Of a DNA stretch of 64,000 nt, positions 53,103 to 63,388 are shown piece after piece (within the stretch, counting starts at the first letter, position 1; each line of letters begins with the position of its first letter). Made by a program: the position numbers and the translations under genes. This DNA is from an uncultured Clostridia bacterium. Lineage in GTDB: Bacteria > Bacillota > Clostridia > TANB77 > CAG-508. Under the pieces are notes generated by a model. It was given only the letters and a program-made list of their open reading frames with translations, was not told the DNA's origin and searched no databases. The stretch covers positions 4,173-68,172 of the forward strand of contig CANQXD010000003.1 in assembly GCA_947627755.1 (NCBI GenBank), written 5' to 3'.

Positions 53103-54452
53103 CTACACTCCTGCTGCTGAGAATAAGAAGTTACCCATATATACTTCTAGTAATGGAACTAATACAACTAATACGAAGAAGATAATAAACACACCTACAA
53201 TAGAGTACATTAATTGTGGCATTACTTTCATTATTTTTTCTAGTGCATTGTTAATGTCCATTTCCATATATTCTACTAATTTTTGCATCATTTCAGATAA
53301 GTCTGTTTGCATACCTATCTTTAACATTTCCGTTATCATTGGAGAAGTTAGACCTGACCTTTCAAATGGTTCTATCCATGATTGTCCAATTAAAATATTG
53401 TTGATTGCTGTTTCTGTCATAGATAGAAATACATAATTGTGTACTACGTTTTTACTTACTTCTATAGCATCTTGAATTCTCATTCCATTGTCTAAGTTTA
53501 ATAACATTGCTTTAATAAATCTAGAAAAGTCTAAACTATAAATTAACTTTCCAAAGATTGGCATTGTATATTTAAAATAATGAAAATTATATTTTCCCTT
53601 TGGTGTATTGATATAGAATATAATACCAACTACAATACCTAAAATGATAAAGGTCGGAATATACCAGTGTTCAAGCAATGCTATAATGAAGGATTGGAAA
53701 GCTAATGTAATAGGATTGATTTCATCTTTACTTCCTACTGCATCATACACTCTTTGAATTGCAGGTACTGCAACTAATGTTCCTACTACTAGCATAATAA
53801 TTAATCCTATTAATTGTAATACACTTGGAATAACAATTTTCTTTACTTTGCTAGTGATATCATTTGAATTATCTAAATATCGAACAGCTTGTTGTAAAGA
53901 TTTTGTAAGAGATCCTGACAATTCTCCTACTTTTATCATATTAATATAAATATATGGAAAAACATTAGAATAGTATTCCATTGTTGTATACATATAGTCT
54001 CCACCCTGTACTCCAGCTAGAATATCCTCTAAAATTCCACGTAAAGACAAGTTTTCTGTACTTTCTATAATGGTACTTAAAGCATGAATATTATTAAAAT
54101 TTGCCTTTTTTAATAAGTAAAAGTTTTGTGTAAAAACAACTAAATCACGATTTGTAATTTGCTCTGTTGCTGCTAATTTTAAATTGACCTTTTCTACCCA
54201 TGAGATTTCTTTTTTGGCTGTTCCGTTTAAAATAGCACTAGAGTTTGCTGTTTGCATAATTTCATCCATATTGCTAACATTTTTCTTTTTCTTCTTCACG
54301 CCTTTGCCCATATATCCAACTTGTACTACTTGAATAGGCATTAAGCCATTATTTTTAAGTCTTTTAATTAAGGACTGCTTGCTAGTATCTTCTACTTTGT
54401 TTTTTACTACTAATCCTTTATCTGTTACAGCTTTATACACATATTCTGCCAT
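53103..54452 (-). CDS. pilC: type IV pilus platform protein (GspF/PilC family)
   Basis: 449-aa polytopic protein with two T2SS-F-like repeats (FPYIYINMIKVGELSGSLTKSLQQAVRYLD; SPMITEMLKIGMQTDLSEMMQKLVEY). Last gene of the pil cluster. Confidence 0.85.
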   Translation of the reverse strand: MAEYVYKAVTDKGLVVKNKVEDTSKQSLIKRLKNNGLMPIQVVQVGYMGKGVKKKKKNVSNMDEIMQTANSSAILNGTAKKEISWVEKVNLKLAATEQITNRDLVVFTQNFYLLKKANFNNIHALSTIIESTENLSLRGILEDILAGVQGGDYMYTTMEYYSNVFPYIYINMIKVGELSGSLTKSLQQAVRYLDNSNDITSKVKKIVIPSVLQLIGLIIMLVVGTLVAVPAIQRVYDAVGSKDEINPITLAFQSFIIALLEHWYIPTFIILGIVVGIIFYINTPKGKYNFHYFKYTMPIFGKLIYSLDFSRFIKAMLLNLDNGMRIQDAIEVSKNVVHNYVFLSMTETAINNILIGQSWIEPFERSGLTSPMITEMLKIGMQTDLSEMMQKLVEYMEMDINNALEKIMKVMPQLMYSIVGVFIIFFVLVVLVPLLEVYMGNFLFSAAGV

Positions 54453-54489: not shown

Positions 54490-55602
54490 TTAATTTGATA
54501 TTTGTGATTGTTTCTTTATTTTTAATTGCATAATCGTTCTATTTAAAATTTCTATATTTTTTTCTTCTATTTGCGCTTTAGCTTGATCTAATGTAATTTT
54601 GTCATCTACAAATAACTCTGCAATAGAATTTATTAAACCGATACTTCCTTTTTCTAAATTACTTTGAATTGCATCTTCTATTTCAGATACACTAATTTTA
54701 TCTTTTCTAATAATTCCTGAAACGATATTATCTACTACCATAACTTCTGGTACTAATACTAATTTTCCATTTTTTCCTTTTAATAGTCTTTGTGAAACAA
54801 CAAGTTTTAGTAAAGAAGAAATAACATATTTAACACTTGGTTGGTCACTAATGTCGTAAAAGTTAATCATTCTATCGATAGTTTCTGCACAAGATTTAGT
54901 ATGCAACGTTCCTATTACTAAGTGACCTGATTCTGCTGTTTCAATTGCAGCATCCATAGTTTCTCTATCACGAATCTCTCCTACTACTACAATATCGCAG
55001 TCTTCTCTTAAAGAGTTTTTTACACCATCACTATAGCATAAACAATCTCTTCCTGCTCCTACTTCCTTTTGAATAATAATGGATTTTTTTGAAGTGTGTT
55101 TATATTCTACTGGACTTTCTAATGTTAATATTTTTTTGTTTTGATTCTCATTAATATCATTAATTAACGCATTTAATGTAGTTGTTTTTCCTGAGTTTGT
55201 TTTTCCTGTTACTAAAATTAAGCCTTGTGGTTGATAAGTCATTCTTCTTACTATATCTGGTACTCCTAAATCTTCATATTTAGGAAGTTCATTTTTAATT
55301 AAACGCAAGGTGAAAGTAGGAATTTCATCTGCATAAGATACATTTACCCTTAAGCGGATATCTTCAAATTCAAAAGAAGTATCCAATTTTTTGGTCTTTT
55401 TAAAGGTTTCATCTTTTTCTAAGTTTCCTCTTACAAAATAATCGTAAATTTCGGTTAAATCTTCTTCTGTTAATTCCTCATATTCTTCTATTGGTATTAA
55501 ATCTCTTGCAATTCTTAACATTGGCTTTAATCCGAAAATTAAGTGAACATCTGAGGCATCTTTTTCTTTTGCTATTTTTAAAACCTTATCTATATTTATC
55601 AT
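54490..55602 (-). CDS. pilT: type IV pilus retraction ATPase (PilT family)
   Basis: ASDVHL N-terminal motif, Walker A GKTNSGKTTT, Asp box/Walker B (CDIVVVGEIRD) and His box (GHLVIGTLHT). 370 aa. Confidence 0.9.
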   Translation of the reverse strand: MINIDKVLKIAKEKDASDVHLIFGLKPMLRIARDLIPIEEYEELTEEDLTEIYDYFVRGNLEKDETFKKTKKLDTSFEFEDIRLRVNVSYADEIPTFTLRLIKNELPKYEDLGVPDIVRRMTYQPQGLILVTGKTNSGKTTTLNALINDINENQNKKILTLESPVEYKHTSKKSIIIQKEVGAGRDCLCYSDGVKNSLREDCDIVVVGEIRDRETMDAAIETAESGHLVIGTLHTKSCAETIDRMINFYDISDQPSVKYVISSLLKLVVSQRLLKGKNGKLVLVPEVMVVDNIVSGIIRKDKISVSEIEDAIQSNLEKGSIGLINSIAELFVDDKITLDQAKAQIEEKNIEILNRTIMQLKIKKQSQISN

Positions 55603-55627: not shown

Positions 55628-57256
55628 TTAAAAAATAACTAATTTTTTGTTTAGCTCTTGTAAAGTTGTTATTCCTGCTAATACTTTGTTTAATCCATCA
55701 ACAACAAGTGGTCTATAATTTCCTTCTAATGCCTTATTTCTAATTTCTATACTAGAAGCATTATCTACTATTAATTGCTTAATAGTATCATCAATTACTA
55801 ATATCTCATAGATAGCAATTCTATCATAGTAGCCAGTATGGTGGCATCTTTCACAACCTATTGTTTCATAAGTTGTTTTATCTGTAAAATCTAATGTAGT
55901 ATGATATTGTTCTGCAATATGATTCATTATATCTTTTTCTTCTTCATTGAATTCTCTTTTTTTACTACAATATGGACATACTTTTCTTACTAGACGTTGC
56001 GAAATTGAAGTTGCAAGTGTACTTGCTATGTCGTAGTTTGAAATTCCCATTTTTCTTAATCTTGTAATAACTTCTACACTGTTAATTGTATGTATAGTGG
56101 ATAATACGTAATGTCCAGTTTGTCCAGATTGCATTGCAATTTCTGCCGTTTCTTTATCACGAATTTCTCCTACTAGAATAATATCTGGATCTTGTCTTAA
56201 AACTGTTCTTAAAGAATCAGAGAAAGAAGTCTTTGTATCAATTTCTACTTGATTTAAGCCTGGAATACGAATTTCAACTGGGTCTTCAATTGTGGTAATA
56301 TTAATACTTGGCTTGTTTAACATATCTACAACGCTATATAATGTTGTTGTTTTTCCTTCTCCTGTAGGTGCCGCAATAATAGTAATACTATTTTTCTTAT
56401 CAAAGCTATCTTTTAGTAATTTTTCATCTTTTGGGAAACCTAAATCAAAAATTTTCTTGATTCCAGCATTCTTTTTTAATAATCTTAATACAAATTTTTC
56501 TCCATATACATTTTTTTGTGAAGATACACGAATGTTATAGTCTGGATACTCTAAAATTCTACCATCTTGTGATTCTTGTTTTTCTTGGTGCATATTTGAA
56601 ATAGCTTTTAACCTTCCTATAATTTGTGGTTGTTTTTCTTGTTCTATTTCTACTGCTGTAATAAGTTCTCCGTCTATACGATAGCGAATTCTTAATTTAT
56701 CTTCCATTGGTTCAAAGTGAATATCACTGGCTCTTTTTTCCATAGCCGTTTTAATTATACTATCTACTAATCCTGTAATATCTCGATTTGTATCAATGTT
56801 TTCTGAAACCACTCCTTCTAAAGAGTTTAATATTTCATCTATATTACTTTCAAATGTAATATATTTATCCATAACAAGCCCTTTATTTAATAATAAAAGT
56901 CTTATAGTATCTACTGTTCTTGGCTTAGTAGTATCAGCAAAACATACCTTTACTTTTCCAGCCTCTATATCAAATGGAATTGCTTTATTCTTTTTTGCAA
57001 TATCTAAAGATATATAATCTGAGACCTCAATACGAATATCATTTTCAGTTAATAATATTGTTTTTTCTCCTAAAATATCTCCTAATGCTGATATTAAGGC
57101 ATTATCATTACATAAATGCAAAATATGTAAAATATCTCCTAATTTTTTTTCAGGATGTTCTCTTTGGTATTCTAAGGCTGATTGAATATCCTCTTCACTA
57201 ATAATTCTTCTTTTTGCAAGTTCTATTCCAATTGGTTGTGTTTGTTTTAGTGCCAT
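55628..57256 (-). CDS. pilB: type IV pilus assembly ATPase (PilB/GspE family)
   Basis: Walker A APTGEGKTTT, PDIILVGEIRD, GHYVLSTIHT and a tetracysteine motif (CPYC...CERC). Confidence 0.92.
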   Translation of the reverse strand: MALKQTQPIGIELAKRRIISEEDIQSALEYQREHPEKKLGDILHILHLCNDNALISALGDILGEKTILLTENDIRIEVSDYISLDIAKKNKAIPFDIEAGKVKVCFADTTKPRTVDTIRLLLLNKGLVMDKYITFESNIDEILNSLEGVVSENIDTNRDITGLVDSIIKTAMEKRASDIHFEPMEDKLRIRYRIDGELITAVEIEQEKQPQIIGRLKAISNMHQEKQESQDGRILEYPDYNIRVSSQKNVYGEKFVLRLLKKNAGIKKIFDLGFPKDEKLLKDSFDKKNSITIIAAPTGEGKTTTLYSVVDMLNKPSINITTIEDPVEIRIPGLNQVEIDTKTSFSDSLRTVLRQDPDIILVGEIRDKETAEIAMQSGQTGHYVLSTIHTINSVEVITRLRKMGISNYDIASTLATSISQRLVRKVCPYCSKKREFNEEEKDIMNHIAEQYHTTLDFTDKTTYETIGCERCHHTGYYDRIAIYEILVIDDTIKQLIVDNASSIEIRNKALEGNYRPLVVDGLNKVLAGITTLQELNKKLVIF

Positions 57257-57342: not shown

Positions 57343-57786
57343 TTACCAATATCGTAGTACATATTCATTTTTAACTTCAAAAAGTTTTGAGCTTTTAATT
57401 GCCATCTGTACTTGTATTAAATTTTTGGTAATATTATTTTGTTTTTGCTCTGTTTTTGTAAATTTACAATAAGCAATGTTATTGCATATCTTTACCTTGT
57501 TACGATAAATACTATTATCTGGAGCTTCATAATAAGTATATATTGTACCATCTTCAAAAATAATCTGATGATTTGTTACTTCATAAGTATTGTTGTTGTT
57601 TTTTACATCTTCAATAAAATACATATTGAATTTATTAAATTCTGATATATATTTTCCACTCTCAGTAATATATTTTGTATTACTAAAAAACATATCACTT
57701 ATCACTGCTAGCATTGAAATAGCAAATGTTAGCAATATCATATATATAATTAAAGAGGTTAATGTGATTCCTTTTTCTTGTTTCAC
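57343..57786 (-). CDS. minor pilin-like protein (non-canonical prepilin)
   Basis: MKQEKG|ITLTSLIIYMILLTFAISMLAVI: short basic leader ending in Gly, then a ~22-aa hydrophobic helix. Ser at +5. Confidence 0.7.
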   Translation of the reverse strand: MKQEKGITLTSLIIYMILLTFAISMLAVISDMFFSNTKYITESGKYISEFNKFNMYFIEDVKNNNNTYEVTNHQIIFEDGTIYTYYEAPDNSIYRNKVKICNNIAYCKFTKTEQKQNNITKNLIQVQMAIKSSKLFEVKNEYVLRYW

Positions 57787-57801: not shown

Positions 57802-58212
57802 CTACGCTTCTTTTATTTTTAATTTTCGTATCGTATAGTTCTTAGTTTGTCCTAAAAATTCGTAATCAATGGTTATAGTAAGAATTTTTATAATATCTTG
57901 CTTACTACTATCGTTTTGATTATATTTTTCTACTTTTATATTTGCATTCATACTTTCTGGTAATTCATACATAGCACTAATATTTTCATTTAAAGTTTCT
58001 GTTACTTCTTCATATTGCATTTTGTCTGTACTTTCTGCTATTTTTACAGCATAATGAACTGCCATTGCGTTCATTCTAATTTCTGCTGTATAGGATGCAA
58101 TTTGATAATATAAGGTACCTATTGTTCCTACAAACAAGCTTAAAATCAACATAGCAATAACAACATCTGCAATTGATATTCCTTTATTTTCTTTCCACTT
58201 TATTAATTTCAT
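57802..58212 (-). CDS. minor pilin-like protein (non-canonical prepilin, Asp at +5)
   Basis: Start set at the ATG at 58212 (MKLIKWKENKG|ISIADVVIAMLILSLFVGTIG) after AGGTGG. Abuts the pilD stop. Confidence 0.7.
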   Translation of the reverse strand: MKLIKWKENKGISIADVVIAMLILSLFVGTIGTLYYQIASYTAEIRMNAMAVHYAVKIAESTDKMQYEEVTETLNENISAMYELPESMNANIKVEKYNQNDSSKQDIIKILTITIDYEFLGQTKNYTIRKLKIKEA

Positions 58213-58213
58213 T

Positions 58214-59029
58214 TTACCACCTACAAGCAAACCAATTGATTCCAATTATTGTGATAATATTAAAAATTGTTAGATAAAAACCAATGGGTAAATTTTCAAA
58301 ATAAGACATTGCTTTATAATTTTTTCCTCTACTATTTTGCATTATTTTTCTTATTATATTCTCTATACAAAATGTCACTAAACTTAAGAATACTGTTATT
58401 ATATAACCTATTGGATATGAAAAAACTATCATAATAATACTTAATTGCAAAATTTCAATTACATAAGAGCCTTGTATTTTTTTCTTTAAATACTTATTAT
58501 CAATTATTATTAATATAATAAGCAATAATAAGGATATAACATATCTATATATATTAGCTTTTTCTACTATATATAGATAAATCATATACCCTGCTAAAAT
58601 AATAGTTTCATATAAAATTACGCATTTTTGAATAGTTTTTCTTTCTTTATCAATTCCCGCTATTATAATTAAGCCAGCAAAATATAATAGCCCTACTAAC
58701 AAATATACTAATTTACTAACTTCTAATTTTTCAAATGATAAATTAAGTGACATAGCAAATAAAAGAAATATTGTACCTGATAATATTTCTAAAAGTAAAT
58801 AACGAATTCTAATTTTTTCTTTGCAATAATGACATTTTCCCTTTAACGCTAAATAGCTTAAAATAGGAATCATATCCCAAAATCCAAGTTTATGATTGCA
58901 ATTTGGACAATAAGAACGTTTATGGGTAATGTCTTGATGTAAAGGAAGTCTATATACTGCCAAAGTAAAAAAGCTTCCAAATAGAGTTCCAATGCAAAAA
59001 ATTAAAAAATAAAAAATAAATTGTTCCAT
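58214..59029 (-). CDS. pilD: prepilin peptidase (A24 family, divergent)
   Basis: N-terminal Zn-binding region CPNCNHKL...CHYCKEKI, a first Asp region (IIAGIDKERKTI) and polytopic topology. The usual GxGD(V/F)KL box is not obvious (closest is IIDNKYL). Confidence 0.8.
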   Translation of the reverse strand: MEQFIFYFLIFCIGTLFGSFFTLAVYRLPLHQDITHKRSYCPNCNHKLGFWDMIPILSYLALKGKCHYCKEKIRIRYLLLEILSGTIFLLFAMSLNLSFEKLEVSKLVYLLVGLLYFAGLIIIAGIDKERKTIQKCVILYETIILAGYMIYLYIVEKANIYRYVISLLLLIILIIIDNKYLKKKIQGSYVIEILQLSIIMIVFSYPIGYIITVFLSLVTFCIENIIRKIMQNSRGKNYKAMSYFENLPIGFYLTIFNIITIIGINWFACRW

Positions 59030-59046
59030 TTTCTTTCCATTTTACT

Positions 59047-59090
59047 AAAAAATATGAGGTTACCTAAATACAAAATTGGTAACCTCATAT
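59047..59090 (-). terminator. strong hairpin/terminator immediately after the major pilin gene
   Basis: Perfect 13-bp stem atatgaggttacc / ggtaacctcatat (59052-59064 / 59078-59090). On the minus strand it is followed by TTTTT. Confidence 0.8.
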
Positions 59091-59145: not shown

Positions 59146-59364
59146 TTATTCCCAGCCTTTGTCGTCTATATATTTTTCAACGTTAGTAAAATCACTTTGC
59201 TCTTGATTAGCTGCTGCTGCATAATTTTCACGACCTTGTTTTGCCTTATTGAATAATCCATTTTGTCCTAATACCATAGAAATAGATATTCCAGCTAAGA
59301 TAATAAGTACAACAATAGTAATTACTAATGCAACAAGTGTAATACCTTTTTGTCCTTTTAACAT
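59146..59364 (-). CDS. major pilin candidate, 72 aa (65 aa mature), non-canonical prepilin
   Basis: MLKGQKG|ITLVALVITIVVLIILAGISISMVLGQNGLFNKAKQ... Strong RBS AAGGAGG and its own downstream hairpin. No room for a globular head domain. Confidence 0.8.
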   Translation of the reverse strand: MLKGQKGITLVALVITIVVLIILAGISISMVLGQNGLFNKAKQGRENYAAAANQEQSDFTNVEKYIDDKGWE

Positions 59365-59431
59365 AAAAAATTCCTCCTTATATTTATTTTTTTGTATATA
59401 TTTATTTTTATAAATATAACCTAAATATTAA

Positions 59432-59866
59432 TTATTTTAGTCCTGTTTTTGGACTACTTACTGTATTTCCCGTACTTCCCGTGCTTCCTGTATTTTGATT
59501 GTTTCCTGCTTGTCCATTTGATGAATTATTATCTGGCGTGTCAGTTCCTACTATCGTAGTACCTGCATCACTTTCTACTGTAGTTGCAAATGGATTTTCT
59601 TTGCTAGGGTCGTAAGTTCTATCTTTTTGATAAATATTTAAATCTGCTCCTTCTATTACATATACTCTATTTTGTAATTCTATTTCGTTATCAATTGTTT
59701 CTTCTTTTAATGCATTTTGAACACTTTCTGGTGTAGTATATGCAATTTTATTTGGAACTACTTTACTAATTGGGTTATCATCATAAAATAATACACTTAA
59801 TAATAAGATGATAACAACACATAGTAATAAAATGATAATCATTTCTTTTAATATGGTTTTAATCAT
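59432..59866 (-). CDS. bitopic pilus-cluster protein of unknown role
   Basis: N-terminal TM (MIIILLLCVVIILLLSVLFY), then a small domain and an Asn/Gly/Ser/Thr-rich tail. Lies between the pilO-like and pilin genes. Confidence 0.55.
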   Translation of the reverse strand: MIKTILKEMIIILLLCVVIILLLSVLFYDDNPISKVVPNKIAYTTPESVQNALKEETIDNEIELQNRVYVIEGADLNIYQKDRTYDPSKENPFATTVESDAGTTIVGTDTPDNNSSNGQAGNNQNTGSTGSTGNTVSSPKTGLK

Positions 59867-59883: not shown

Positions 59884-60573
59884 TTAGTCTTCATTTGTAT
59901 TAGTATTTTCCTGCGTATCACTAGATTCTTGTGAATCATTAGTTTCTTGCGTATCTGTTGTGCTTGTTGCATTTACTGATTGTGTTGAAGTGTTACCTTG
60001 TACTGTTACATTTTTAACTGTAAATGTTCCTTGTAATATTTCACCTTGATAAGGTAATAGTTTGAAGTTTTGTATTCTAAAGTTTAAATCTGTATCATTT
60101 TCAATAGCATAAATGAAGTTTGTAATTGCTATATATGAACCATTTACTGTAAATCTTATATCATTTACACCATTAGTACCTGTACTACTTGAAACGATTT
60201 CAAATGTTAGTAAAACTCCTTGCTTTCTAGCATGTGTTCCTAATGTTGTCCATAAAAATTCAATAGTATAACTTTTTTGTTCCATTGCTGCTAAAATTTC
60301 TGCATCTGTACTTACATTCGTATATTGTAAATATTCTTCTTCTGCTTCTTTTAAATTTTTTTCTGCATTTGTTAGCTCTGATCTTTTTTTAGGATAGTCA
60401 ACATCAATCATAGCATTGGCTTCTTCAATTTTGGTATTTAATTCTTGTGCTTTTTGTTCTATTTGCTCTATACTTAAAATTTGTATACTACCAAATTGCA
60501 TTCCATTTCTTAAGGCTACATAGCCTAGAGCAAGAAATAAAACAATGATAATACTTAATAATATCTTTCTCAT
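59884..60573 (-). CDS. PilO-like pilus alignment protein
   Basis: N-terminal TM, a coiled coil (QKAQELNTKIEEANAMI...NLKEAEEEY) and a C-terminal beta-rich domain. ATGA overlap with the pilMN stop. Assignment rests on architecture and position. Confidence 0.5.
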   Translation of the reverse strand: MRKILLSIIIVLFLALGYVALRNGMQFGSIQILSIEQIEQKAQELNTKIEEANAMIDVDYPKKRSELTNAEKNLKEAEEEYLQYTNVSTDAEILAAMEQKSYTIEFLWTTLGTHARKQGVLLTFEIVSSSTGTNGVNDIRFTVNGSYIAITNFIYAIENDTDLNFRIQNFKLLPYQGEILQGTFTVKNVTVQGNTSTQSVNATSTTDTQETNDSQESSDTQENTNTNED

Positions 60574-62219
60574 GGCAAGTCTCCTTCTATTACAACTTTT
60601 ACAATACCATTTTGTTTTACACCAGAAGTAGAAACTATTGTACTAGGGCTTAAAATTCCATCAACAATTAACTTGCTCTTGAAAAATCCTAGTAAATCAT
60701 ATTCCTTAGCTTGTGCTTGGATAACAATATGGGAATTTGAAGTATTTTCTATTGACGTTAAAGTAACTCCTTTTGGAATAACATTCATAATTCTTGTTAA
60801 TAACAATGGAATCACATTTTTTGTTCTTAGCTTTTCTTGTGCTTCATCACTATAATTTTTAAGATTTTCTGTCATTGTTTCATAATTAGTAGCTTTACTA
60901 TTTAATGCTTGCACATCTTTATCTGCTAAACTTATTTGTTCTCTTGTATCTTCTTTTAAACGTTCAACTTCTGCTATTTTACTATCTGTTTGAACTTTTA
61001 AGAAAGTTACCATAGCAAAATAGATAATTAAGAATGCTACTATTCCTGAAGTTAATCTTAACATCCATTTTTCTGTATTGTCCCATTTTGCTTTTAAGTC
61101 GAACGATAAATTTAAAGAAGAAAAGATGTTTTTCTTTTTGCCTTTTGAATTATTAGCGTTATTTTTACTGTTTCCTTCTAATTTTAACCAACTTGGCATT
61201 TGATCCACTAATGTTGGTTTTTTAAAGTTTATGGTCTTAATTCCATAACCTAAACCTTGCATAGCAAGAGCTATAGCAGAGTTTACTTCAATATAATCTT
61301 TCATATTGATTTTTATATTGTCTGGTACAAAGTATGGTTTTAAGATTTCGCATTTAATATTTGGAAAATACTCTTGAAAGTATAAATCTACATTGCTAAT
61401 TATACTTCCAGTTCCTGTAATATAAATTTTATTTATATGGTCTATTTCTAAGTTTTCTACTAATGTTTTTGTTTTTTGCACAATTTGATATAATGTAGGC
61501 ATTATATCTTCTAAATATAAATTTTCATCTTCTTGTCCAAGTTCTTTTCCTTCCATAGTGTAAATAGTAGTATTTTTACAGATTTCATAAGCTTTTGCAT
61601 AAGAATTTTCTTTTGAATTAATATTGTCTAAAATGACGTCCATTCCTTCTTCTAATTTATCTACTTGATACACTCTTTCTTCTACCATAGTAGTAATACT
61701 TGTTTTTTCTTCAATATTAACAATAATAGAATTTTCCTTTGATTTAATATCTACTAAATTAGGAATTACCATAGCAAGTGGTGACATACAAGAGATAGAA
61801 TTTCCTTCAAATTCTTGCATTTTTCTATTAATTTCTACTTTATTTACAGATATATAAATTGCTTTTATTTTTTCGTTATTTTTCATATCTGGTACTAAAG
61901 CATAACGTGTTTCTAACGCATTTCTGTTGTAACCTTTATCAAAGCAATATGAATCAAACTCTGTTTCTATTGCTTTTTTTAAGTCATTTTTATTAAGTAG
62001 ATTAAAAAAGTAGAAATATTGATAAGTTTCCTCTGATAAATTAATACTAATTGGTATTTTGTAGCTAAAAGTTTCAGAAATGATTTGATTAATTGCTTCA
62101 CCAATTTTATCATAAAATTTTACACCAAAAGATTCTACTTTTAGTAAGTCACGTTCTTTAGTTACTTTTGCATATTTAATTAAATTGTTTTCAATATATA
62201 AACCTAAACAACTTGGCAT
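60570..62219 (-). CDS. pilMN: fused PilM-PilN pilus alignment protein
   Basis: N-terminal actin-like PilM-type domain (about 330 aa), then TM (LTSGIVAFLIIYFAMVTFL), a coiled coil and a PilN-like C-domain. A fused pilMN is known in clostridial T4P loci. Confidence 0.7.
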   Translation of the reverse strand: MPSCLGLYIENNLIKYAKVTKERDLLKVESFGVKFYDKIGEAINQIISETFSYKIPISINLSEETYQYFYFFNLLNKNDLKKAIETEFDSYCFDKGYNRNALETRYALVPDMKNNEKIKAIYISVNKVEINRKMQEFEGNSISCMSPLAMVIPNLVDIKSKENSIIVNIEEKTSITTMVEERVYQVDKLEEGMDVILDNINSKENSYAKAYEICKNTTIYTMEGKELGQEDENLYLEDIMPTLYQIVQKTKTLVENLEIDHINKIYITGTGSIISNVDLYFQEYFPNIKCEILKPYFVPDNIKINMKDYIEVNSAIALAMQGLGYGIKTINFKKPTLVDQMPSWLKLEGNSKNNANNSKGKKKNIFSSLNLSFDLKAKWDNTEKWMLRLTSGIVAFLIIYFAMVTFLKVQTDSKIAEVERLKEDTREQISLADKDVQALNSKATNYETMTENLKNYSDEAQEKLRTKNVIPLLLTRIMNVIPKGVTLTSIENTSNSHIVIQAQAKEYDLLGFFKSKLIVDGILSPSTIVSTSGVKQNGIVKVVIEGDLP

Positions 62220-62506
62220 GATAACTCCTTCTTTTGTTTTTGAAAATTTATATTATTATAGTTTGCAAAAAAATACAAAAAATACTTTTCTTTTTTTATT
62301 TTATTTTTCATATTTTTCCGTTTTTTGTCATATTATGATAAATCTGTCTCTATTTTATCTTTTTTTTATTGAAAGTCAATAGTTTTAATATACTTGTAAT
62401 TTAAATGTAATATTATTGTAATATTTTATAATTTTTTTTATTTTTATATAATTTTTCAAATAATTATTCAAAATTTTGCACTTATTTTTTAATTGCTAAA
62501 AAATTA

Positions 62507-62567: not shown

Positions 62568-63388
62568 TTATCTTATAAAACATATTGCTATAATAATAAT
62601 TCCCAATATTACACGATAAATGGCAAATATTTTAAAACTTCCTTTTTTTAGATAATTTAGCAAAAATTTGATGACAAAAAGTCCTACTAAAAAGCTAGTA
62701 ACAACACCTATTAGGAATGGCAAATCGAAAACAAAATGTTTCATTTCGTATAAAGCGGCAGCTGCTACAATTGGTGTAGATAATAGGAAAGAATATTTTG
62801 CAACTGATTCTCTGTCAATTTGTAACTTTCTTCCTACAGTCATTGTAATTCCTGATCTTGAAACTCCCGGAAATGCAGCTGCAAGTGCTTGTGAAATTGA
62901 AATTAGAATTGATTGTTTTAAGGTAATATCTTTGTAAGATATTTTTGATTTTGCTTTTTTATATATAATACAATTCCCATTACAATTAAAGCAATTGCTA
63001 TTAGTATCATTTCTACTGATATTATTTCTACGTGAAATGCACTGGATAATCCTTCTATTATTTTTTCTGATATTTTATCTAATACTAAGCTTAAAATGCC
63101 TGCTGGAATTGTTGCAATAACAATATACCAGAAAATTTTTCCTTCTGTTGATTTTTCTTTTTTTACTACTTGCTTGTATCCGCCTTTTATTAAATTAACC
63201 CAATCTTTAAAGAAGAATACTAAAATTGAAAATAAAGTTCCAATATGTAATGCTACATCAAATGATGGTGTCATTTCTCCCCACTGAAATAGCCATGGAA
63301 ATAAGTTTAAATGAGCTGAACTAGAAATTGGTAGTAATTCTGTTAATCCTTGTACAATTCCTAATATAATCGCTTGTGTTATATTCAT
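62568..63388 (-). pseudogene. uppP: undecaprenyl-diphosphatase UppP/BacA, split by a -1 frameshift in a homopolymer
   Basis: ORF 62918-63388 (GIVQGLTELLPISSSAHL...) and ORF 62568-62843 (...KYSFLLSTP...) are the two halves. The intervening frame reads SYKDITLKQSILISISQALAAAFPGVSRSGIT. One extra T in the T6 run at 62955-62960 would fuse them. The span is 821 nt (3n+2). Confidence 0.85.

Follow-up and report, generated by a model that had tools for sequence, protein, structure and literature searches.

Type IV pili are usually pictured as polymers of 'lollipop' subunits, where the globular head forms the filament surface and Glu5 aids assembly. In the Tad/Flp (type IVc) pili, pilins such as PilA of Caulobacter crescentus are very short, have no beta-sheet domain and build an all-helical filament (PMC11067988, PMC10710030). 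Fission of the pilin gene is recorded for the Desulfuromonadales in one study (PMC5174107), and ComGC, a small pilin of monoderms, possesses a soluble part which is helical and not an alpha/beta roll (PMC7212644). In Streptococcus sanguinis, the PilB and PilC proteins combine a pilin N-terminus with a grafted binding domain, within a monoderm type IV pilus (PMC8179133).

The window considered here, that is, the whole stretch of 64,000 nucleotides that was analysed, derives from an uncultured Clostridia bacterium and holds a pilus operon on its minus strand. The prepilin gene of this operon (59146-59364, minus strand) encodes only 72 aa, made up of a 7-aa leader ending in Gly and a 65-aa mature part without head domain. 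The product, MLKGQKG|ITLVALVITIVVLIILAGISISMVLGQNGLFNKAKQGRENYAAAANQEQSDFTNVEKYIDDKGWE in the ORF translation, contains no Cys and has Ala at position +5; its frame ends with a double stop (TAA TAA), and its tryptic peptide is ENYAAAANQEQSDFTNVEK. The interpretation favoured in this work is that the protein is probably the major subunit, reduced to the alpha1 helix alone, of an all-helical filament put together by a type IVa-like machine. A previous sequence-only reading of the same DNA had described 72 aa, a 7-aa leader and the lack of both Cys and E5, and each of these items was found to be correct on re-reading the sequence.

The strongest expression signals of the operon, the AAGGAGG box and a hairpin, are those of the pilin gene. 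The ribosome-binding site, which had been called strong, was confirmed at 59373-59379 (minus strand), 8 nt 5' of the pilin ATG, and occurs in 39 of 39 orthologous loci. The 13-bp hairpin that had been attributed to the gene was also recovered by direct folding, with an energy of -24.1 kcal/mol (z = -5.8) which none of 200 shuffles equalled. Hairpin and T-run extend over 59044-59090 (minus strand), between the pilin gene and pilD; the arms of the stem lie at 59052-59064 and 59078-59090, separated by a 13-nt loop, and the T-run follows the stem on the minus (coding) strand. Its absence from the consensus terminator scan is due to this loop of 13 nt, since the scan considers loops of 3-8 nt only. 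Moreover, a hairpin of -13 kcal/mol or lower is present 3' of the pilin gene in 38 of the 39 orthologous loci, where two unrelated stem sequences, GAGGTTACC... and ATGGCATATGCA..., take the same position, so that it is the structure which is kept. The element is likely to be a partial terminator or a stabiliser of the mRNA 3'-end within the operon. As for the name of major pilin given in the sequence-only reading, the expression signals fit a major subunit, whereas the role itself would be assigned from context.

That so short a frame might stem from faulty sequencing or assembly, or from the recent decay of a longer pilin gene into a pseudogene, can be given practically no credence. A word-indexed search of 5.8 billion proteins yielded 678 homologues of the 72-aa pilin, the 120 listed measuring 69-83 aa, and in 39 species-level loci, drawn from one-genome-per-species contigs, an orthologue of 69-80 aa fills the identical syntenic slot within the common order pilMN-pilO-X-pilin-pilD-minor-minor-pilB-pilT-pilC. 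Once pooled, the short pilins comprise 147 distinct mature sequences of 62-76 aa, with Ala (136), Ser (6) or Thr (5) at position +5, never Glu or Asp, and with Cys in a single sequence. Such equality of length in about 40 species and 147 distinct sequences argues against an artefact, as do the double stop codon and the fact that only 116 nt remain before the next gene. Truncation of a longer pilin through a sequencing error, the caveat raised in the sequence-only reading, was ruled out by the orthologue lengths, there being hundreds of orthologues of the same size. In addition, the spacer of 116 nt between the pilin stop and the pilD start (59029) leaves no room for a frameshifted head domain after the pilin. 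The family, with 16,680 cluster representatives at E <= 1e-10, is a large one and, with nothing listed in Pfam for the short homologues, essentially unannotated. The carriers of the short pilin are MAGs of uncultured gut Clostridia (human, rabbit, mouse, chicken and deer), one of them being isolate UMGS1663, which on the PilB tree shares a well-supported 13-member clade with the window. The genus UMGS1663 belongs to the order TANB77 (PMC11680825), and the host of the window would appear to be a member of this order, in or near that genus.

The prepilin, MLKGQKG|ITLVALVITIVVLIILAGISI, shows a short hydrophilic leader up to Gly and then a hydrophobic stretch of about 21 or more residues (alpha1-N), and K6, G7, T9 and L10 are invariant in 45 family sequences. 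When the family profile was compared with solved type IV pilins, the N-termini of MshA (E 0.002), PilE1 and geopilin were matched. The Pfam N_methyl model (PF07963) gave E 0.0077 and 16.2 bits on the 72-aa pilin, below its cut-off of 21.2 bits. The class III signal peptide and the PilB/PilC-type machine context are features by which the protein would be placed in the type IV pilin superfamily; the Glu or Asp expected at +5 in this superfamily is lacking, and so is the globular alpha/beta head with disulfide-bonded D-region of type IVa/IVb pilins, the mature protein having 65 residues, no Cys and no predicted strand.

Structure prediction with AlphaFold2 (45 sequences) returned helices at residues 2-32 and 37-69, with no strand, a mean pLDDT of 80 and a helix break at G-Q-N-G. 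The lack of a globular head claimed in the sequence-only reading was therefore upheld, two helices and no beta-sheet being predicted. No PDB entry was matched by the monomer model in Foldseek, which is unsurprising for a pair of helices with nothing attached. In mature numbering, the protein consists of a hydrophobic alpha1-N (1-25), the break G26-x-N-G29 and alpha1-C (30-62). Residues 1-25 align with the canonical alpha1-N through T2, L3, L6 and I15-L16-A17, and conservation within residues 28-62 follows an alpha-helical periodicity (maximum at 95-100 degrees) which defines one conserved alpha1-C face, formed by I30, A34, G37, Y41, A44, A45, E48 and L52. In ordinary pilins the alpha1-C face packs on the subunit's own beta-sheet; in a head-less pilin only neighbouring helices would remain as packing partners. 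For the C-terminal helix a dN/dS of about 0.7 was obtained, versus 0.19 for the N-terminal half, values which are only indicative because dS is near saturation. A freely varying remainder of alpha1-C is what would be expected of an exposed fibre surface. Glu5 is normally important in pilin assembly. The possibility that the invariant Glu48 stands in for it, as partner of the N-terminal amine, was considered and given little weight; head-bearing relatives keep Glu48 as well. An acidic residue is present around position 48-49 of canonical type IVa pilins, and Glu48 is more likely an inherited alpha1-C feature.

The origin of the short form can be followed in sister genera of the same family, where a pilin of 131-199 aa occupies the identical operon slot. 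These long pilins have the same leader and helix as the short form (…QKGITLVALVITIIVLLILAGV…G.NG…), including G26, G29 and E48, and add a C-terminal part of strand-like sequence, while the window pilin stops about 35 residues past the hydrophobic helix. Among the eight sampled genera with the operon, six have the short pilin and two the long one. Two changes suffice for the short state on the PilB tree (46 loci), with 38 short loci on one side and a single long-pilin locus nested within them. Since pilins with the same N-terminus and a longer body fill this slot in sister genera, the head has been lost, on the PilB tree, essentially once. The head-less state would therefore come from the loss of a small alpha/beta head which the sister genera still keep. 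Gene fission was also considered as an origin, and no sign of it was found, pilD coming directly after the pilin and its 116-nt spacer. In two loci, L085 (5552-6420) and L079 (5494-6450), the slot is filled by a tandem pair of pilin genes (about 140-150 aa each). In the PilB tree the first of these loci falls inside the short-pilin lineages, which points to regain or replacement of a head-bearing pilin at this locus.

The loss of the head raises the question of the adjacent gene (59432-59866, minus strand), which encodes a 144-aa bitopic membrane protein with an N-terminal membrane helix, a short conserved segment and a low-complexity tail. In the sequence-only reading this protein had been proposed, as a speculation, as a PilA-C-like partner, in which case pilin and neighbour would constitute a two-chain subunit comparable to PilA-N/PilA-C. 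The two genes do adjoin and both are conserved across the clade; nevertheless, the proposal is now very improbable. The neighbour is located upstream of the pilin, not downstream, keeps its own membrane anchor, is mostly disordered and resembles no solved structure. In fact, the prediction consists of a membrane helix and two further, short ones, together with a long disordered Ser/Thr/Asn/Gly-rich tail, without any beta-domain (mean pLDDT 63, falling under 50 from residue 98), and no matches were obtained in Pfam, NCBIfam or the PDB sequences. Furthermore, a homologue of the neighbour (tblastn E <= 1e-4, 28-46% identity) is found in 5 of 9 long-pilin loci, and a protein which is present in relatives with head-bearing pilins is not a split-off head. 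A PilA-C-like head was accordingly ruled out on the grounds of predicted disorder, lack of structural relatives and presence in long-pilin loci; the protein is no pilin either, and is more likely an accessory of the pilus machine. The neighbour and its orthologues (L008-L087) conserve T-G-x-K at the extreme C-terminus, which in several relatives reads (Y/F)LPNTGTK, a sequence similar to the sortase LPxTG motif that lacks the usual hydrophobic tail.

The other genes of the operon, all on the minus strand, encode a pilus machine. The first gene (60570-62219) gives a 549-aa protein interpreted as a PilM-PilN fusion, whose PilM half is named from its position only and whose PilN half reaches a Pfam E of 0.091 and 13.2 bits, far below the 22.8-bit cut-off. 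A 229-aa bitopic protein (59884-60573) is called PilO-like on position and topology only, with no family match. Downstream of the pilin are the PilD-like gene (58214-59029), two genes for minor pilin-like proteins, of about 136-147 aa with the junction G|ISIAD and thus Asp at +5 (57802-58245) and of 147 aa with G|ITLTS (57343-57786), and three genes recognised through Pfam and NCBIfam models: a PilB-type extension ATPase with MshEN N-terminal domain (55628-57256), a PilT-type retraction ATPase above the cut-off of TIGR01420 (PilT/PilU family; 54490-55602) and a PilC/GspF platform protein (53103-54452). The best consensus match upstream of pilMN, a sigma-70-like TTGACT-16-TAAAAT (62352-62379, minus strand), is a possible operon promoter. 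Further upstream, a putative UppP/BacA-like undecaprenyl-diphosphatase gene (62568-63388, minus strand) is apparently divided into two ORFs, of 156 aa (62918-63388) and 91 aa (62568-62843). The division may be due to a frameshift, to an error in the sequencing or to decay of the gene into a pseudogene. In the whole genome (1.64 Mb, 28% G+C) the clear T2SSE-family ATPases are PilB and PilT only, and the fact that the operon contains both, PilT being above its family cut-off, points to a type IVa-like, retraction-capable machine in a single-membrane bacterium. A ComEC gene (778-aa frame) was located at genome contig C13:31226-32014, and neither a ComG operon nor a ComG-type ATPase was found in the genome. 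With ComEC present, ComG absent and PilB/PilT as sole clear T2SSE ATPases, a role in DNA uptake is possible; the pilus could serve in adhesion through modular heads, in motility or in DNA uptake.

The processing of the prepilin deserves separate consideration. The in-operon PilD-like protein conserves the zinc-ribbon A24_N domain, with four invariant Cys, in 27 of 27 orthologues, and the aspartyl-peptidase domain was not detected in it, the Peptidase_A24 model being found in 0 of the 27. These orthologues show no conservation where the second catalytic GxGD motif would be expected, and in a profile-profile comparison with the canonical enzyme the peptidase halves showed no similarity. A canonical A24 peptidase of 252 aa (…GFGDVKL…), without A24_N, is encoded as a solo gene at about 24.0-24.8 kb of genome contig C7 (L007 1342-2100) and is kept in 29 of 31 relatives. 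The in-operon PilD gene of one sister family still scores as A24. Methyltransferase and peptidase functions may be split between the PilD-like protein and the solo enzyme, and cleavage of the prepilin after Gly7 is plausible.

The degenerate in-operon peptidase, together with the absence of E5, lends some ground to the idea that the 72-aa protein does not polymerise at all, acting as a membrane-anchored regulator, a chaperone-like partner or a competitive substrate which tunes the processing of other proteins carrying its helix module. This is nonetheless rather unlikely, since the protein takes the slot of the 131-199 aa pilins of sister genera and has the strongest expression signals of the operon, where no other head-bearing candidate for major pilin was found.

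The helix of the pilin is shared well beyond the operon, and the pilin itself represents the bare form of a common module. A module of about 60 aa heads 31 genes in the host genome, the pilin and 30 others, those outside the window being located on genome contigs C2, C4, C5, C6, C7, C9, C12, C22, C25, C26, C33, C35, C42, C43, C57, C60, C64 and C66. Each begins with a leader of 5-49 aa to Gly, followed by ITLIALVITIIVLIILAGVSINLVLGENGLF.KA…; the leaders of some, of up to 49 aa, are unusually long for prepilins. Large intact proteins, with open frames up to 888 aa, account for 27 of these genes: 17 have a common C-terminal domain with weak to significant FGE-sulfatase/C-type-lectin-like matches, and others are coiled-coil or repeat proteins. 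Two short module ORFs of 66 and 73 aa (C10:42071-42271 and C23:27680-27901), with Arg-rich ends (…ARRRSRSCK), look like frameshifted remnants of large paralogues and not like second short pilins. Related genomes (1.2-2.0 Mb) contain 2-99 module genes, and a profile search of 1.84 billion cluster representatives detected the module in 16,680 of them at E <= 1e-10. Among the best 150 of these 16,680, 40 are of 90 aa or less, the longest of the others has 706 aa, and 144 have Ala at +5. A literature search with the module sequence strings found nothing.

The module proteins appear to be bound to the fate of the machine. Besides the membrane helix, the 27 large paralogues retain A34, A44 and E48 of alpha1-C, and in one family (f1) the 32 genomes with PilMN carry 5-48 module genes while the 6 without PilMN carry 0-1; a sister family has neither PilMN nor the module. 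As the module tracks PilMN and shares alpha1-C residues, the proteins that carry it are dependent on the machine and have the look of subunits belonging to one common filament. A connection between head loss and the expansion of the paralogues was examined and rejected, the median number of module genes in family genomes being similar with short pilins (about 26) and with long ones (about 20), so that head loss and module-family expansion are separate events. In a same-genus genome (G016), the PilMN match at C5:46556-48236 is broken by several stop codons; 29 module genes and a pilin of 71 aa are nevertheless retained there. The machine of this genome may have decayed recently, or the assembly may be faulty.

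The dependence of so many module-bearing proteins on one machine could also be explained if the 72-aa protein formed, instead of a long surface pilus, a piston-like short pseudopilus of the type II secretion kind, with a machine that serves mainly to process the module proteins and to export or display them. A head-less subunit offers little adhesion surface of its own, and a secretion role has been proposed for a clostridial set of type IV pilus genes (bioRxiv 10.1101/2024.11.04.621531). Such a role is on the whole unlikely. PilT, here above its family cut-off, is typical of dynamic pili and not of type II secretion systems, and the presumed cargo carries the pilin helix and the conserved alpha1-C face, which makes these proteins look like subunits and not like soluble cargo.

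The reading in which the 72-aa protein is the major subunit of an all-helical filament can be described as follows. Transcription of the operon would start ahead of pilMN, and the hairpin that follows the pilin gene would raise the level of pilin mRNA above that of the downstream machinery genes. Once inserted in the membrane, the prepilin would lose its leader through cleavage behind Gly7. The prepilin peptidase responsible would probably be the canonical A24 enzyme of the solo gene, given that the PilD-like protein of the operon has only the zinc-ribbon domain left. From the 65-aa subunits, PilB, PilC and PilMN/PilO would then build a thin filament made of helices alone, in which the hydrophobic alpha1-N would form the core and the conserved alpha1-C face, judging from its conservation pattern, would pack on neighbouring helices instead of an own beta-sheet; PilT would retract this filament. 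The other alpha1-module proteins would make use of the same machine, as suggested by the shared packing residues and the strict co-occurrence, and would probably be modular pilins with lectin-like and other heads, located at the filament tip or at scattered points along its length. Several facts were counted against this reading: Glu5 is absent from 147 of 147 short pilins, the N_methyl score is below threshold, the peptidase domain is found in 0 of 27 PilD-like proteins, the C-terminal helix has a dN/dS of about 0.7 (with dS saturated) and Foldseek gave no match for the monomer. Moreover, we know of no solved precedent for a head-less filament on a type IVa-type machine without a partner protein. 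In a further and more tentative step, for which we would give less than even chances, the head-less pilin would serve as the stalk of a 'display pilus', with the large module proteins co-polymerising through the shared alpha1-C face. If so, a large, exchangeable repertoire of lectin-fold and other binding heads would be carried on the filament, and an uncultured gut order would possess a system of variable adhesins based on a pilus.

TANB77, an uncultured order that is frequent in human guts, has been linked to immunotherapy response and is at present of clinical interest, and the pilus system and its many surface proteins form an undescribed part of its surface. From a mechanistic point of view, a type IVa-like machine with a retraction ATPase seemingly runs on a 65-residue subunit without head and without Glu5, a condition which is stable across many species. 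To our knowledge, the unrelated Tad system is the only precedent for a fibre of alpha1 helices alone, and a structure of the filament would show how alpha1 by itself holds a retractile fibre together and how bulky modular pilins fit into it. There is also a practical consequence: the PilFind motif demands [DE] at +5 (PMC3244431), and pilin finders which need Glu or Asp at this position miss the short-pilin family because its +5 residue is Ala, Ser or Thr.

With regard to known systems, Tad/Flp, Geobacter PilA-N and ComGC are the closest analogues, and the pilin of 59146-59364 belongs to none of them. The sequence-only reading, which named PilA-N alone for comparison, was incomplete in this respect, since Tad/Flp pilins are established head-less pilins and ComGC is all-helical. 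The Tad/Flp pilins share with the window pilin a very short, head-less form, the window filament being all-helical by prediction only. The Flp motif (G/xxxxEY) is, however, missing from the window pilin, which has no E5-Y6 and whose N-terminus is T4a-like (TL..L...ILA), unlike that of Flp; the machines also differ, CpaF/TadB/TadC (TadV) in one case and PilB, PilT, PilC and PilMN/PilO in the other. The published 'TANB77 pilin' belongs to a separate, Tad-like cluster with pilin-like proteins of 143-236 aa (PMC11680825).

The likeness to PilA-N of Geobacter sulfurreducens is closer in several respects, as both proteins have about 61-65 mature residues, consist essentially of alpha1 alone and are served by a T4a-type machine; in addition, the window family profile matches 'geopilin domain 1' over the N-terminus. 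PilA-N, however, works with the adjacent PilA-C, whereas the window pilin has pilD downstream and an upstream gene which is not a head. Glu5 and Phe1 of PilA-N correspond to Ala and Ile, and the two forms would have arisen by different routes, gene fission for PilA-N and head loss for the window pilin, whose host is a monoderm gut bacterium. ComGC resembles the window pilin in being a small pilin of a single-membrane host with a helical soluble part, but it is longer, has Glu5 where the window pilin has Ala5 and is built by ComGA/ComGB without PilT or PilMNO. The T4a PilB and GspE models were favoured over ComGA in the scores of the window PilB, and no sequence similarity between ComGC and the window pilin was found past the signal peptide. 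Finally, the modular pilins of S. sanguinis offer a parallel for the module family, both being large proteins with a pilin N-terminus in a monoderm with type IV pili. In S. sanguinis the carrier is a complete small pilin (helix and beta-sheet), with two such proteins per species, whereas in the window host the carrier is the helix alone, of the same kind as the major subunit, and it is found in 2-99 genes per genome.
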